From Microcoleaceae cyanobacterium (GTDB taxonomy: Bacteria > Cyanobacteriota > Cyanobacteriia > Cyanobacteriales > Microcoleaceae), in NCBI GenBank assembly GCA_051652765.1, contig JBOFUV010000029.1, positions 1 to 41,596 on the forward strand: a DNA stretch of 41,596 bases. The letters are read 5' to 3'. How positions within the stretch are numbered: position 1 is the stretch's first letter; each line of letters opens with the position of its first letter. Of this stretch, positions 6,001 to 12,000 are shown one piece after another. The position numbers were made by a program.

Positions 6001-9000
6001 ACGCTAGAAGAGTCAACCGCTGACGAATTAGGATAAAACTGGTTGGCCCATCGTAGGCTTGACCGAATTGGCCCATCTTCCTCAAACAAGATCGGGTGAT
6101 GTAAATCCTGGCGATGTTCTAGGATCGGGAGATCCTGTTCAAAAGTATTAGCCACGTCACGCTTGAGCAGGGCTGTCAACACCCAACCCAAGGGTTGAGG
6201 CAGCAACTTTTTGACACTGAAGAAAATTTCAATATCGAGATGGTCTTCATCTATGGGGGTTCCGGTAAAAATGGTCAAGAGTTCCAACTTGATCCGGCCC
6301 TGAGTCCAGTAATAACTCACATCATAGGCTGGCCCATAATAAATTGTCGTTACACCGCCATCCTCGTCCACGAACTTACCTGCCGCTAACGACGAAAGAT
6401 TATACTTTTGGGACATGCGGTGGGTCAGCACTGGGCCATCAATTTCAATCCCCAAACTTTTTGCCGAACTAAATGTCTGACTATGGAGGTTGGATAAATG
6501 AGAGACATCTACACTATTTTCCATATAGTGTCTCAACGTGGTTCGCACTCGCCAACGCCGTACCGAGCTTAACGGTGTCCATTTTTGAGTCAACAATTCA
6601 GGAATTCCCGGAATTTGCCAATTCGGGAGATCAGCTTGATGGTGGTAATACATCAAAATCAGACCATTCACCTCTTGAACAGGCCAAGACTGAATTCGAA
6701 CTTGCGGCAGTTGTTTATCTGGATAGGGAACATGAACGCACTGGCCTGCTCCATTCCACCGCCAACCATGATAGGGACACCGAATCGTATCGGCCTGAAT
6801 CGTACTGCCATAACCCAGGTGAGCCCCAAGATGCGGACAATAGGCATCCAGTAACCGAGGCGTGCCATCCTCTGCCCGAAACAAGACAAAATCTCGACCA
6901 AAGTAATGCAGAGGCAATACTTTCTTCGGGGGCAACTCCCAACCGGTGGCAATTCGGAACCAACTATTGGGAAAGCCCAGACGAGAGTGCTGATTTTTGG
7001 TCTGATCGATGTTCTGAACCATAGTATTTCTTATTTTAGGAGTTGTATTGTCTTTCGGATCAGGCTCTGGTATCTCCGGTCAGAACCCTCAGTTAGAAGC
7101 CAAGGTTCAGAATGCTCACCTAGAACCCTCAGTTAGAACCCTCAGTTAGAAAACTTTAGGGTGATCATAAGCCAAGATAATGAATCTGCCATGGTTATTT
7201 TGATGGGTTGAGGAAAAACTAGACCGATCCGTTTGATTTAGGGACAGGGGAAAACTATAATGCTGAGACTGATGCTTTCCTCACCCGACCAAATCGTAGA
7301 CCTTCTCATGAGTTCCGCTTACTGAATGAGTGGCTTAGATATTTTCAACAACATCGTTACCTTAGTTGACCTCCTGCGCCATCGGGCAGAACACTCTCCT
7401 GAACAAGTTGCTTACACCTTCTTGGTTGATGGAGAACTGGAGCAGGTCAGCTTTACACATCGGGCACTGGATCAGAAGGCCAAGGCGATCGCGGCCTATC
7501 TACAATCTTGCTGTCAGCCGGGAGAACGAGCAATTCTGTTGTATCAACCCGGACTTGATTATGTCAGTGCCTTTTTTGGCTGTCTGTATGCCGGAATAAT
7601 CGCCGTTCCCGCCTATCCCCCCCGTCCCAACCGATCCCTCGCCCGTTTACAATCAATTTTCAGCAACGCCCAAGCAACAATTGCACTCACCAGCGAGTCC
7701 ATTTTTACTAGCTTACAACGACGGGCTGAATCTGTCCCCGAACTCGAACAGACCTCTTGGTTGGCAACCGATCTTTTAGAGGACTCCCTCGGGGCGCAGT
7801 GGCAAGCTCCCTCTCTGCATCCGGATAGTCTGGCCTTTTTGCAATATACCTCCGGTTCTACTGCCACTCCTAAAGGGGTGATGATTACCCATCGGAACTT
7901 ACTGGAGAACCTGACCGCGATCCACTGTTGTTTTGAGCATACGCCCCAAAGTCAAGGCGTGATTTGGTTGCCGCCCTATCATGACATGGGTTTGATTGGG
8001 GGGGTTTTACAGCCGTTGTTTGGGGGGTTTCCGGTGGTGTTAATGTCCCCCTTGCTGTTCCTACAACGCCCAATTCGTTGGCTAGAGGCGATTTCTCGCC
8101 ATCGCGGGACAACAAGCGGCGGGCCAAACTTTGCCTATGATCTTTGTGTTCGTCGAACTACTCCAGAACAGCGGGCGGGTTTAGATCTAAGCAGTTGGAC
8201 ATTGGCCTTTAATGGGGCGGAACCGATTTACGCCGAAGTATTGGAGCAATTTGTGCAAACCTTTGAACCCCATGGATTTCGCCGAGAAGGGTTCTATCCC
8301 TGCTATGGCATGGCGGAGGCAACTTTAATTATTTCAGGGGGCAAAAAGGCGGCATTTCCTGTCTTGAAAACTGTTCAGGCAAGTGCCCTAGAACATAATC
8401 AAGTTGCTCCCACCACGGAGAAGACCCCTAACACCCGAACCCTTGTGGGATGTGGCCATGCTTTACCGGGTCAGCGGGTGCAAATTGTCAATCCCGAGAC
8501 GTTGGTGCTCTGTTCTGCCGGAGAGGTGGGAGAAATCTGGGTGCAGGGGCCAAGTATTGCTCAAGGCTACTGGCATAATCCGGAGGCCACAGCACAAAAC
8601 TTTCAGGCACACTTGGCTTCTAATGAAGCAGGGCCATTCCTTCGCACTGGAGATTTAGGATTTTTAGAGGGGGATGAACTGTTTGTCACAGGCCGTCTTA
8701 AGGATTTGATTATCATTAATGGTCACAATCACTATCCTCAGGATATTGAATGGACGGTCGAACACTGCAATCCCCTGATCCGACCCAACTGTGCTGCGGG
8801 TTTTTCAGTTGAGGTGAGCGGAGAAGAACGGCTGGTTGTTGTAGCTGAAGTTGAGCGCCATTATCAAAAGCGTCGCTCAATTTATCCTGAATCCGCATCT
8901 GAGTCCCCGAACTTGAAAGAAATTGTGCAATCTATTCAACAGGCTGTGTTGCAATCTCATGACCTTTCAGTCTACACCGTTGCCCTGCTTAAACCAGGGA

Positions 9001-12000
9001 CAATTCCCAAAACCTCTAGCGGAAAAATTCAGCGTCATGCCTGCCGAGCCTTGTTTTTGGCAGGAACTTTAGAAACCCTTGAGGCTTGGTCAGTGAAAGC
9101 TTAGGTGGAATGATTATCCGCAACAACGATGCCTTGGAACCCAATCGCAGCGTGAGACTGCTGGTTACCCTTTCTAGTTCTATAGCTCTCATGGCAAAAT
9201 AACCATCATGTCTTTCCCTATTTCATGGTTAGACCAGACAAACTGCAAGCAGTCGGGAGTTCACGATTGGGCGCGTACCGCCGAGGGATATTTCGGCCAA
9301 CGACCCATCCCCTGTGACCCCAAAAATCGAGTGGTGCTAAAGTTTTTAGCGTGTTGGAGGAGTGAATCATGCAACTATTAAATCAGTCGTTAAACGGTAA
9401 AGAGGCCCCTAGGCCAATCATTGTAGGCTATGAACAGCAATCTTCTGTAGACTCCCTCGCGTTCCCTCAAACGGTGGAATCGATTCGGAGTTGGTTGATC
9501 AGTCAGCTTGCTGCACGGCTCGGATTTCAGCCCAGCGAAATTGATATTCATGAAAATTTTGGCAACTATGGCTTGAATTCAATTGAAGCGGTGAATCTTT
9601 CAGGAGATCTGGAAAGTATTTTGGGGCGGAGGTTACCGCCAACGATTCTGTGGGACTATCCCACGATTCAAACCCTAGCGGAGTATCTAGCGGAAGACAC
9701 CTCAAAAGATACAGGAATGATCGTTAGTCGTTCTTCCATTCCTCCCGAAAAGGCTGAACAGCTTCTGACACGGCTTGATCAGCTTTCTGATGCGGAGGTT
9801 GACACTCTCTTAAAGTCATTATTATTTGAAGAGGAAAACGATTAATGTTAAACCTACCGACCGCTACAGAACAGATTGCCCATCTCTCTCCCCAAGAAAA
9901 GCGATTGCTCCTTGCAGATTTACTTCGTCAGCGGGCTGATTCCAAAACCACTCCGGAAATTCCTCCAGAGCATTACCGATTTGATCTCTATCCAGAATAC
10001 CGCAAACTCAAACAACAGCAACAGGAAATTGCAGCTCTAAAACTGGGAAATCCCTTTTTTCTTCCCCAAGAGGGAATTAGCAGTAACGTTACCCGAGTGA
10101 GGGGTGAAGAGCTGATTAATTTTGCAACTTACAACTACTTAGGCATGTCAGGTGACCCGGTTGTGTCTCAAGCCGCAAAAGATGCCATCGATCGCTACGG
10201 GACTTCGGTATCTGCCAGTCGCCTTGTCTCTGGGGAAAAACCGTTACACCGAGAGCTGGAGCAAACGATTGCTGACTTCATCGGGACAGAAGACTGTATT
10301 GTGTTTGTCGGTGGCCATGCAACAAATGTTACCACCGTCAGTCACCTGTTTGGGCAAAATGACCTAATTGTGCATGACTCCCTCAGCCATAACAGTTTGC
10401 TTCAGGGCTGTCTGTTGTCGGGTGCAACAGCCGTCGCCTTTCCCCATAATGATTGGCAAGCCGTGGATCGAATTCTCCGGGATCGTCGCCATCGCTACAG
10501 ACGGGTTTTGATCATTATTGAAGGCGTTTATAGTACGGATGGCGATATTCCGAACTTACCCGAGTTTATTCAGATCAAGCAGCGTCACAAAGCCTTTTTG
10601 ATGGTAGATGAGGCCCATTCGATTGGGGTGCTGGGTCAAGGGGGACGGGGTATTAGTGAACATTTTGGCGTGGATGCCACGGACGTTGATCTGTGGATGG
10701 GAACCTTGAGTAAATCCTTTGCGAGTTGTGGCGGCTACATTGCTGGATGTCGGGCAGTGGTGGAATATTTGAAGTACACAGCTCCAGGATTTGTCTTTAG
10801 TGTGGGCATTTCCCCACCCAATGCAGCTTCTGTTTTGGCCGCAATTCAGGTTCTCAAAGCTGAACCCGAGCGAGTTGCTCGGCTCCATGAACGGGCTCGG
10901 TTGTTCTTGGAACTGACTCAGGCAAAAGGACTCAACACGGGAACAAGCAAGGACTCTCCGGTGATTCCGATTGTTGTCGGAGATTCCCTGAAGTCCATTC
11001 AACTGTCTCAGAGCTTATTCCGACGGGGGATCAACGTCCCCTTTATGATTTATCCCTCCGTGCCTCATAATGGCGCTCGTTTGCGCTTCTTCATCACCTG
11101 CAACCACACCGAACAACAGATTCGGTATGCGGTTGATGTTCTGACCGAGGAGGTGGCTCAGTTGTCGTAATTCTTGGAAGTCCTTGGTGGTTTGTCTAGA
11201 CAAATCTTGTAGACAGATTTTGTAGACAAATCTTGTAGACAGATTTTGTAAACAAATCTTGTAGGTTGGGGTAGAACAAAGTGAAATCTAACAAGCCTCT
11301 GAGAGTGTTAGCTTGAGAGTGTTAGCCTGAGGAGTGTTAGGTCTGCCACCTCGACACCAACCGACACAACCCGATCAGCTCGACAGACCACCAGACTAGG
11401 GCAAATTGACGCTCAAACAGATGGGGCTCAGAGTCCTTCACTCATCCTTCTACCAAGGTTCATGTTCCTCAACACCCTGCATTTGCAATACTTTCGGAAC
11501 TACACCGATCAGTGGGTGACCTTTGATGCCCCAAAAACAATCCTCCTAGGAGACAACGCCCAGGGGAAAACTAATTTATTAGAAGCGGTGGAATTGCTCT
11601 CAACTCTCAAGAGTCATCGGGTGAGTCGCGATCGCGACCTGATCTTAGAGGAAAAACCTCGAGGACAAATTGGGGCCCGCTTGCACCGGGAGTTAGGCAC
11701 GGTAGAACTTGCAATTACCCTCCGCAGCCAGGGACGACGCACAGTTTCTCTCAATGGTGAGGCATTGAAACGACACATTGATTTTCTCAGTGTGCTGAAT
11801 GTGGTGCAATTCTCAAGTTTGGACTTGGAACTGGTTCGAGGCAGTCCCGAGCATCGCCGAAATTGGCTGGATCGTCTCCTGATTCAGCTTGAACCGTTTT
11901 ATGCTCACATCCTCCAACAATACAACCAGGTTTTGCGCCAACGCAATGCCCTATTAAAACAGGCCAAAGCCTCCCTAAGAGACTTTGGCAAACCGTTGTG

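Follow-up and report, generated by a model that had tools for sequence, protein, structure and literature searches.

A carrier-protein-linked alpha-oxoamine synthase cassette predicted to make a sphingosine-like amino lipid in a cyanobacterium

The window, i.e. the whole stretch of 41,596 nucleotides analysed from the genome of a Microcoleaceae cyanobacterium, carries three plus-strand genes for a fatty acyl-AMP ligase (FAAL1), an acyl carrier protein (ACP) and an alpha-oxoamine synthase (AOS). When re-derived, their open reading frames were found where an earlier note on this DNA had placed them, and the stop/start overlap that it had described at the ACP-AOS junction was seen as TAATG, with one base in common. 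The divergent Rieske oxygenase that it had reported upstream was also present. The features are listed below, the last being an unlinked gene on another contig.

1969-3468: Wza, directly on the upstream side of the cassette
3606-5942: Wzc, directly on the upstream side of the cassette
5997-7022, minus strand: Rieske [2Fe-2S] oxygenase, KshA-like (Pfam Rieske 8e-20, KshA_C 1e-25)
7023-7325, no strand assigned: divergent Rieske/FAAL promoter region carrying a 16-nt motif in three identical copies
7326-9104, plus strand: FAAL1, 592 aa (Pfam AMP-binding 8e-70, AMP-dom_DIP2-like)
9105-9368, plus strand: FAAL-ACP spacer with two nucleotide-conserved blocks and a hairpin
9369-9845, plus strand: stand-alone PKS-type ACP, 158 aa (Pfam PP-binding 1e-14)
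9845-11170, plus strand: PLP-dependent AOS of an RkpG-like carrier-protein-fed clade, 441 aa (Pfam Aminotran_1_2 3e-50)
Contig C108, 5549-6424, minus strand: short-chain dehydrogenase/reductase (SDR), TSC10-like (top PDB match TSC10)

The copies of the 16-nt motif (7083-7098, 7123-7138 and 7136-7151) were its only occurrences in the 5.04-Mb genome, and the motif was absent from the relatives' loci. A promoter-like site was located at 7233-7261 (plus strand), the number of such sites being no higher than chance. In the FAAL-ACP spacer two blocks, one at about 9186-9215 and the other at about 9324-9380, were conserved in an alignment of four genomes, and immediately 5' of the ACP ribosome-binding site lies a hairpin; the spacer had no Rfam match at E<=1 and no compensatory changes were seen.

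FAAL1 scored 460 and 432 bits with the NCBIfam fatty-acid--AMP ligase models, each time under the cut-off, and its PDB matches were 7r7e-g, named 'Polyketide synthase' (1e-194), and the Legionella FAAL 3kxw (2e-152), followed by FadD32, FadD23 and FadD28. For the ACP the top PDB match was Asl1650 (9e-18), and alignment located the serine motif, with Ser71 (codon 9579-9581) as the predicted phosphopantetheine site; a PPTase domain was found in the host genome. Okeania and Moorena encode ACP-AOS fusions (544-577 aa), with the N-terminal part of which residues 1-116 of the ACP align; Planctomycetota encode FAAL-ACP-AOS fusions of about 1125-1330 aa. These fusions tie FAAL, ACP and AOS together and bear out the suggestion of the earlier note that they form one unit, in which the FAAL would load the ACP and the ACP would feed the AOS. 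A FAAL match (44-78% identity) adjoined the AOS in 53/80 related loci, with weak or short matches only in three further loci. Other related loci encode an AOS fused to a PKS in a protein of about 2600 aa, and PKS-AOS fusions of the clade to which this AOS belongs, with an adjoining SDR, were present in Microcystis, Cyanothece and Planktothrix.

All catalytic residues of the AOS are intact when mapped by alignment onto the residues of S. multivorum serine palmitoyltransferase (SPT) named in a section of PMC10196870: His182, the Ser of VYS, DEAHS at 255, TLSK with the PLP lysine (Lys290, codon 10712-10714) and ARLRF with its Arg at 411. Most positions of these motifs were kept in at least 90% of the 81 clade rows. 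The PDB ranking reported earlier, with SPTs ahead of BioF and KBL, was reproduced with the same E-values (LCB2a 2e-71, Sphingobacterium SPT 9e-69, SPTLC2 2e-67, Thermus BioF/KBL 4e-65, KBL 4e-61, BioF 2e-57 and weaker). The claim that the AOS is closest to SPTs is accurate among solved structures but did not extend further, the enzyme falling under all three curated SPT cut-offs (324 vs 640, 303 vs 500 and 240 vs 670), and scoring on the SPT models no better than genuine KBL and BioF enzymes do. In a tree from a quick search (LG+G4, 40/80 loci hand-picked, a single type of validated SPT included) it branched apart from the validated SPT and fell within an RkpG-like clade of 46 rows (SH-aLRT 100) made up of AOSs supplied by FAAL-ACP or by PKS. 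Identity was 47-61% to this clade compared with about 36%, as read from the alignment, to the S. multivorum (Sphingobacterium) SPT. The clade has its own motifs GTSVSASR and FV(F/Y)SVG, and its (S/T)YNYLG motif recurs in Arabidopsis LCB2a and human SPTLC2; at the Tyr position the KBL, BioF, ALAS and Roseomonas SPT rows have Asn. By sequence the AOS groups with the RkpG-like, carrier-protein-fed enzymes and not with the SPT equivalogs, and its family is a little-studied one tied to bacterial capsule lipids.

Potential partners were compared between 22 genomes with the AOS and 40 without it, and all the resulting counts overstate independence because the genomes are related. The KDSR-like SDR, already listed in the earlier note, had the 3-ketodihydrosphingosine (KDS) reductase TSC10 (8jat) as its top PDB match (7e-29; next match 1e-22). 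In 13 loci an SDR follows the AOS directly, and the C108 protein was 53-65% identical to these; its identity to the SDR adjoining the Sinorhizobium RkpG-like gene was 39% over the full length. Orthologues of the C108 SDR occurred in 15/22 genomes with the AOS vs 2/40 without, and within the window's own family in 5/5 vs 0/6; the seven AOS genomes lacking one at the threshold used count against our main reading. The Rieske oxygenase (top PDB matches KshA 2e-35 and SxtT/SxtDIOX 2e-22) is a predicted tailoring hydroxylase of the lipid, with an orthologue adjoining the cassette in L001, L012, L039, G341 and G301 and found in 3/22 genomes vs 0/40. Contig C71 encodes a second FAAL (FAAL2) with an OlsC/LpxO-like acyl 2-hydroxylase, whose top NCBIfam model was OlsC-like (271 bits, under the cut-off of 450) and whose orthologues (at least 47% identity) were present in 10/22 genomes vs 1/40. 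In a sister genus the Rieske gene and the second FAAL with its OlsC-like hydroxylase cluster with the cassette, and the contiguous order in G341 is FAAL2, hydroxylase, hydroxylase, Rieske, FAAL1, ACP, AOS, B12-rSAM. The B12-rSAM family clusters with the AOS in other genomes, which is no guide to its part here because it was present in 58/62 genomes regardless of the AOS.

Given the gene content, intact residues, fusions, clade membership, co-occurrence and synteny, all observed directly, we consider it likely that the genes at 7326-11170 form the core of a lipid pathway in which a FAAL-ACP-fed AOS yields an amino-ketone that is reduced to a sphingoid-type amino alcohol. FAAL1 would adenylate a free long-chain fatty acid and then charge the dedicated ACP with it, on the phosphopantetheine arm at Ser71. 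By PLP-dependent decarboxylative Claisen condensation the AOS would then join the acyl-ACP to a small alpha-amino acid, for which serine, alanine and glycine are candidates that the sequence does not discriminate. The long-chain amino-ketone proposed earlier stays the expected product, most likely a 2-amino-3-ketone, and the unlinked SDR would reduce it to the 2-amino-3-alcohol, a sphingoid-type base. The Rieske oxygenase may hydroxylate the lipid, and FAAL2 and the C71 hydroxylase probably supply and modify a second acyl chain. We infer all these chemical steps, as well as chain length, amino acid, N-acylation and cellular role. In this way the cassette should couple an amino acid with a fatty acid, giving a sphingosine-like amino lipid in a cyanobacterium.

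A possible but doubtful alternative is that the AOS is a functional SPT, converting acyl-ACP and L-serine to 3-ketosphinganine as the entry point to ceramides or glycosphingolipids. The ranking of solved structures and the (S/T)YNYLG motif would agree with this, while the curated cut-offs and the tree speak against it. The TSC10-like reductase that co-occurs with the AOS would agree as well, but it is no pointer to serine because fumonisin-type pathways pair one with an alanine-using AOS. According to a section of PMC10196870, SPTs recognise serine without a diagnostic side chain, and therefore the AOS sequence cannot prove serine use. The OlsC-like hydroxylase and FAAL2 would suit a 2-hydroxy N-acyl chain; against this, no ceramide-synthase or N-acyltransferase candidate was found in the genome, where neither the GNAT adjoining the fusion in five non-cyanobacterial loci nor the neighbours of the validated Roseomonas SPT had homologues, which also weakens the role proposed for FAAL2. 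Part of PMC8895605 gives Scytonema and Moorea as the only cyanobacteria with sphingolipids on record and states that Nostoc punctiforme, with BioF-type AOS only, made none. Both genera bear the AOS clade (L020, L023, L039 and L042), but the match is weak because Moorena and Scytonema genomes abound in gene clusters.

The amino-alcohol lipid could also be the membrane end (anchor or primer) of an exported capsule or sheath polysaccharide, as proposed for rhizobial rkp-1, which we regard as unlikely. Capsule loci do house the closest genetically studied AOS relatives: the one in Sinorhizobium meliloti runs PKS, AOS (47% identical), SDR, capsule protein and KpsF, which we take to be rkpA-rkpG-rkpH-... 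(gene names in part reportedly those of Kiss et al. 1997), and on a Pseudomonas plasmid a PKS and an AOS (55% identical) are found amid capsular polysaccharide genes. The rkp names are applied to the Sinorhizobium locus in part of PMC7902896. These capsule-linked AOSs are PKS-fed and not FAAL-fed, however, and the Wza and Wzc genes upstream of our cassette, which would fit this reading, have no counterpart beside it in the nearest relatives (L001, L012 and G341); Wzc-like genes near the AOS in L010, L057 and L074 notwithstanding, neighbours of this type were present in only 4/81 loci, and no KpsC/KpsS-type gene was seen in the window. Release of the amino-ketone as a diffusible metabolite or signal (cf. 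the CqsA/LqsA autoinducers), its cyclisation or dimerisation to a pyrazine or pyrrole, or its incorporation into a larger natural product is likewise improbable. It would fit the patchy distribution (22/400 sampled genomes of the phylum, 5/25 in the window's own family), the tailoring sets that differ by lineage (halogenase-like FAD enzyme, methyltransferase, acyltransferase_3, HlyD/FtsX exporters, ABC transporters) and a Bacillus plasmid version with glycosyltransferase, methyltransferase, ABC exporter and PPTase. Yet the partner conserved alongside the AOS, a ketoreductase, would eliminate the reactive ketone, the OlsC/LpxO-like hydroxylases are annotated for membrane lipids, the CqsA-type model matched weakly (180 bits against a cut-off of 428), and a Pfam scan of the window detected no NRPS or PKS beside the cassette. 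That the AOS is a second BioF (biotin) or KBL (threonine-catabolic) enzyme lying by chance beside lipid genes is extremely improbable. Its top NCBIfam score was for bioF and many relatives are publicly named '8-amino-7-oxononanoate synthase', but at 354.8 bits it is under the cut-off of 426, and the true BioF, the other AOS gene of the genome, is on C99 (446 bits), in keeping with the earlier statement that the AOS of the cassette is not the biotin enzyme. The separate clade, the fusions to ACP and FAAL and the absence of tdh or bio genes nearby in the Pfam scan all argue the same way.

Among known systems, RkpG/RkpH of rkp-1 and the Pseudomonas capsule pair have their AOS in the same clade and, as predicted here, an acyl chain delivered on a carrier domain; in rkp-1 a homologous SDR also partners the AOS. 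Those systems draw the chain from a large type I PKS and have their genes amid kps-type capsule genes, whereas this cyanobacterium has a FAAL and free-standing ACP for supply, and a Rieske oxygenase and OlsC-like hydroxylases for tailoring. The rkp-1 lipid product is not known to have been chemically identified, and the family therefore offers no known chemistry. The AOS Fum8 of the fungal fumonisin-type pathway with the 3-ketoreductase Fum13, and the AOS domains of PKS lines such as SxtA and RedL, join a carrier-bound acyl chain to an amino acid, the ketone then being reduced; the likeness to our cassette is in reaction order. The rhodobacterial sphingolipid triad SPT, AcpR and AasR, as described in part of PMC9386255, follows the same logic, a dedicated synthetase loading a dedicated ACP whose acyl group is condensed with an amino acid. 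The equivalence drawn in the earlier note is best taken as one of logic. Here the AOS is no SPT equivalog, a FAAL stands in place of an acyl-CoA-synthetase-type AasR and the ACP is of PKS type. The earlier interpretation was supported in part, for the functional unit, the non-BioF identity, the amino-ketone and the SDR. Unlike in Roseomonas, the genes neighbouring its validated SPT are missing from this genome. With the solved SPTs (S. multivorum, S. paucimobilis, LCB2a/SPTLC2) the AOS shares its fold and catalytic residues, and with LCB2a and SPTLC2 also YNYLG, while differing in overall identity, in its scores against the curated models, in its own clade motifs and in the acyl donor, which is predicted to be ACP here and is CoA in the solved enzymes.

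The three plus-strand reading frames claimed for the cassette were all recovered, and the Rieske oxygenase gene was found divergently upstream, as had also been reported. The features of this part of the window are:

1969-3468: Wza-like gene, upstream of the cassette
3606-5942: Wzc-like gene, upstream of the cassette
5997-7022, minus strand: KshA-like Rieske oxygenase, divergent from the cassette
7326-9104, plus strand: FAAL1, fatty acyl-AMP ligase (592 aa), Pfam AMP-binding and FAAL-type C-terminal domain
9369-9845, plus strand: ACP, acyl carrier protein (158 aa), Pfam PP-binding
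9845-11170, plus strand: AOS, alpha-oxoamine synthase (441 aa), Pfam Aminotran_1_2

The stop codon of the ACP gene shares one base with the start codon of the AOS gene (TAATG), recF and psb27 are located downstream of the cassette, and the region is not distinguished by its GC content. FAAL1 is a FAAL by its two domains and by its best solved relatives in a PDB search, with scores under the curated cut-off of all NCBIfam FAAL models. The best solved relative of the ACP was the PKS-type Asl1650, and given that the ACP could be aligned from residue 1 with fused ACP-AOS proteins, its start codon is right. A phosphopantetheinyl transferase (PPTase) domain was found in the genome. The sole PF01648 match (G000:C133:7235-7525, same genome) is part of a 1693-aa open frame, suggesting fusion of the PPTase domain to a large protein.

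The AOS belongs to the PLP fold type I superfamily of BioF, KBL, ALAS and serine palmitoyltransferase (SPT), having the Aminotran_1_2 domain together with the stacking His, the PLP-binding Asp and His, the Schiff-base Lys and the carboxylate-binding Arg. The earlier note had ranked SPTs on top of the PDB matches and had taken the enzyme to be of SPT type. The ranking was reproduced and the assignment was not, since the AOS missed the cut-offs of the SPT equivalog models (NCBIfam NF047600, NF047599 and NF047603) and took a separate position in the tree. It failed to reach the threshold of any curated NCBIfam model, namely bioF (354.8 bits, cut-off 426.45), SPT-CFB (324, cut-off 640), KBL (304.8, cut-off 460), SPT-BetaP (303, cut-off 500) and SPT-AlphaP (240, cut-off 670). 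As a positive control, two ACP-adjacent AOSs from Roseomonas passed SPT-BetaP with 625 and 613 bits, and one KBL, one ALAS and two BioFs each passed their own model. Given that the true KBL and BioF controls reached 242-346 bits on SPT-CFB, which is the range of the window AOS, the SPT scores of the latter represent family background. The claim that it is not the biotin enzyme was confirmed: the genome holds two AOS genes, and the other one, the BioF on contig C99, reached 446 bits on the BioF model (TIGR00858), so that a second BioF identity for the window AOS was discarded.

The tree was inferred from 56 AOS domains by a quick IQ-TREE search under LG+G4, with 40 of the 80 related loci hand-picked to span the architectures. 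The window AOS was placed in a 46-row clade (SH-aLRT 100, stem length 0.61) with SPT, KBL, BioF and ALAS outside it, the branching order among these groups being poorly resolved. It did not group with the validated SPTs, which in this tree are of the rhodobacterial type only, Bacteroidota and eukaryotic SPTs lying outside the sample. On sequence grounds the AOS is a member of an RkpG-like clade, which includes the enzyme of a Sinorhizobium rkp-1-type capsule locus, and stands apart from the SPT equivalogs.

Residues of the S. multivorum SPT named in an excerpt of PMC10196870 were transferred to the AOS by alignment. All of them are intact: His182, the Ser of VYS, D-E-A-H-S (255), T-L-S-K (Lys290) and the Arg of ARLRF (411). 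Across 81 clade rows most catalytic-motif positions reach a conservation of at least 90%, and the AOS looks active. The clade also has motifs of its own, (S/T)YNYLG, GTSVSASR and FV(F/Y)SVG. The Tyr of YNY is common to the clade, LCB2a and SPTLC2, the position being Asn in the KBL, BioF, ALAS and Roseomonas SPT rows, and this shared Tyr is probably why LCB2a and SPTLC2 top the PDB list. According to the same excerpt of PMC10196870, SPT reads the serine hydroxyl through the PLP phosphate and water molecules, with no diagnostic residue. For this reason the amino-acid substrate of the AOS is not readable from its sequence, and an assignment of specificity from residues was dropped.

A scan of species-representative genomes gave 439 relatives. 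The best 80 of these, at 58-87% identity, belong to cyanobacteria, to numerous Pirellulales and other Planctomycetota, and to a few Syntrophobacteraceae. Four architectures recurred among the 80 loci: separate FAAL, ACP and AOS; a FAAL with a fused ACP-AOS of 544-577 aa (Okeania, Moorena); one FAAL-ACP-AOS protein of about 1125-1330 aa; and a PKS-AOS protein of about 2600 aa. These fusions and the conserved synteny tie the parts to each other and indicate, at the level of sequence comparison, that FAAL, ACP and AOS work together. The cassette is present in Trichodesmium, Okeania, Moorena, Planktothrix, Scytonema and many Planctomycetota. Within the phylum, a clade member was found in 22 of 400 sampled genomes at an identity of at least 54% and in two further genomes at 44-45%, the next matches being BioF-like and at most 40% identical; in the window's own family 5/25 genomes had one. 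The top 120 public relatives, among them Trichodesmium, Okeania, Dapis and Hydrocoleum, bear only generic or BioF names; under the labels 'aminotransferase class I/II' or BioF, the family cannot be seen by genome mining.

Further clade members were found in other settings. In Sinorhizobium meliloti the AOS (47% identical) lies between a 2500-aa PKS-like gene and a short-chain dehydrogenase/reductase (SDR) gene, adjoining capsule genes; its match to rkp-1 is by gene order, the name rkpG not being in its record. The functions of the rkp-1 genes were reportedly described by Kiss et al. 1997. On a Pseudomonas plasmid the AOS (55%) follows a type I PKS among capsular polysaccharide genes, a 1607-aa Streptomyces fusion adjoins an MMPL transporter, ACP-AOS genes of Bacillus cereus-group plasmid origin are accompanied by those for a glycosyltransferase, a methyltransferase, an ABC exporter and a PPTase, and a Planktothrix plasmid encodes a PKS-AOS protein (61%). 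Apart from these clade members, a second, distant AOS fusion type, whose open frames span 1095-1099 aa and share 36-37% identity with the window AOS, was seen in three comparison genomes (G123:C1:1822996-1824915, G163 and G181). On a 44-kb conjugative plasmid of Bacteroides thetaiotaomicron (L097) an AOS at 3824-5059 lies near a MAC/perforin-domain gene and falls under all curated cut-offs, the best being SPT-CFB with 399 bits against 640. On the two Roseomonas plasmids (L091 and L098) the validated SPT genes stand in the order ACP, SPT, (GT39), hypothetical protein, DAGK-family kinase and CDP-alcohol phosphatidyltransferase, which looks like a plasmid-borne sphingophospholipid cluster.

Several families recurred next to the AOS: an SDR, mostly directly after it (21/80 loci), a B12-binding radical SAM protein with DUF4070 (14/80), an Asp/Arg-hydroxylase-family protein preceded by a second FAAL (8/80), a GNAT protein (5/80, Planctomycetota and Syntrophobacteraceae), an FAD enzyme (5/80) and a DAGK-type kinase (4/80), both of the latter in Okeania-type loci, and a Rieske oxygenase (four loci: L001, L012, L039 and the window). 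Of these families only the Rieske gene is found in the window; others are encoded elsewhere in the genome, the SDR on C108, FAAL2 with the hydroxylase on C71, radical SAM proteins on C82 and C112, and a lipid kinase on C74. The earlier note's description of the C108 SDR as KDSR-like was upheld, its best solved relative being the KDS reductase TSC10 (7e-29, next 1e-22). Its identity is 53-65% with 13 SDRs encoded directly downstream of an AOS and 39% with the RkpH-like SDR of Sinorhizobium. Within C108:5549-7233 (L083) the SDR gene and the 3' terminus of a same-strand tetrapyrrole (corrin/porphyrin) methylase gene overlap by 4 nt, and the two are therefore probably co-transcribed.

Co-occurrence was examined in 62 genomes, 22 with the AOS clade and 40 without, chosen from the same order. 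The SDR orthologue was present in 15/22 and 2/40, respectively, the OlsC-like hydroxylase (at least 47% identity) in 10/22 and 1/40, and the Rieske oxygenase in 3/22 and 0/40, counts that are indicative rather than statistical given that the genomes are interrelated. When only the window's own family is counted, the SDR occurs in 5/5 genomes with the AOS and 0/6 without. As for the exceptions, the SDR of G123 directly follows the different, 1095-aa AOS fusion and that of G183 has an in-frame TAG. The TSC10 match, the co-occurrence and the adjacency in 13 loci thus tie a KDS-reductase-type SDR to the AOS, as in a sphingolipid pathway. The best NCBIfam match of the hydroxylase was OlsC (271 bits, under the cut-off of 450), and stop codons interrupt several of its matches in the genomes. 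In a sister genus (G341) FAAL2, two hydroxylases, the Rieske oxygenase (opposite strand), FAAL1, ACP, AOS and a radical SAM protein are contiguous, which shows that the scattered parts of the window genome belong together. The radical SAM proteins adjoin the AOS in G341 as well as in the 14 loci, but those of the window genome could not be assigned to the pathway, since homologues of the C82 protein are near-universal (58/62 cyanobacterial genomes irrespective of the AOS, 1-4 paralogues, 52-72% identity); the C82 gene adjoins the housekeeping pgsA. The lipid kinase was likewise set aside as a partner, adjoining the AOS in four Okeania loci only.

The 264-nt spacer between FAAL1 and ACP (9105-9368) is kept at about 300 nt in G341, L001 and L012. 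Two blocks are invariant at the nucleotide level in 4/4 genomes, an 8-pair hairpin lies within invariant sequence directly 5' of the ACP Shine-Dalgarno sequence, and RNAalifold paired UCUC of block 1 with GAGG of the Shine-Dalgarno sequence; no compensatory changes were seen among the four genomes. Small ORFs in the spacer were discarded as genes, since the conserved block falls in different frames from one genome to the next. The spacer may be a translational control element. The only match of an Rfam search of 6900-9500 was a miRNA at E 0.95, attributable to chance. The promoter region between the divergent Rieske and FAAL genes carries, at 7083-7151, three exact copies of a 16-nt motif that has no further copy in the 5.04-Mb genome and is absent from the relatives' loci; it may be the operator of a local regulator. 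Promoter and terminator scans gave counts not above those of shuffled sequence.

From these observations, all made at the level of genes, we infer the following chemistry as most likely. A free fatty acid would be activated by FAAL1 and loaded onto the ACP, the AOS would condense the acyl-ACP with a small amino acid to a long-chain 2-amino-3-ketone, and the TSC10-like SDR would reduce this to a sphingoid-type amino alcohol. The latter would then be decorated by the Rieske oxygenase and by FAAL2 with the OlsC-like hydroxylase, and the decoration could include a 2-hydroxy acyl chain.

That the final product is a true serine-derived sphingolipid is possible, though we consider it rather doubtful. 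The clade is present in Moorena and Scytonema, which passages of PMC8895605 give as the only cyanobacterial genera with reported sphingolipids. Against this, the genome yielded no candidate ceramide synthase, that is, no homologue of the GNAT protein adjoining the fusion in five loci or of the Roseomonas SPT-cluster proteins, these rather than validated bCerS or CerR being the queries. A lipid anchor of a polysaccharide would fit the kinship of the AOS with RkpG and the Wza/Wzc genes upstream of the cassette; no KpsC- or KpsS-like gene was seen in the window, and the Wza/Wzc adjacency is not kept in the nearest relatives (L001, L012 and G341). We consider such a role unlikely. Similarly improbable is a diffusible metabolite, with which the patchy distribution and the variable tailoring would be compatible.

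In a literature search no paper describing a FAAL-ACP-AOS cassette in cyanobacteria was found, and the FAAL papers examined do not mention an AOS partner in their main texts. According to a 2022 study (PMC8895605), cyanobacterial sphingolipids had no known genetic basis, and none was found in Nostoc punctiforme. The cassette is a concrete, testable candidate for this basis, and Trichodesmium is among the ecologically important genera that carry it. Our tentative proposal, which we hold to be possible rather than probable, is that the cassette and the TSC10-like SDR are the missing genetic basis of cyanobacterial sphingoid lipids and a third bacterial long-chain-base route, built independently on a FAAL and an RkpG-type synthase; by extension, the rhizobial rkp-1 (RkpA/G/H) lipid would be a sphingoid-type amino alcohol anchoring the capsule. 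The cassette connects three topics that are usually separate, namely the FAAL-started 'natural product' clusters of cyanobacteria, the orphan RkpG/RkpH step in the making of the rhizobial capsule, and sphingolipid-type chemistry.

The cassette resembles two known systems. Its AOS falls in the same clade as that of the Sinorhizobium rkp-1-type locus, a carrier-bearing acyl supply (here FAAL-ACP) adjoins the AOS, and the PKS-AOS-SDR arrangement of Sinorhizobium matches the order rkpA...rkpG-rkpH given in a section of PMC7902896. The cassette would also work in the same way as the rhodobacterial SPT/AcpR/AasR triad (PMC9386255), but its AOS belongs to the RkpG-like clade.
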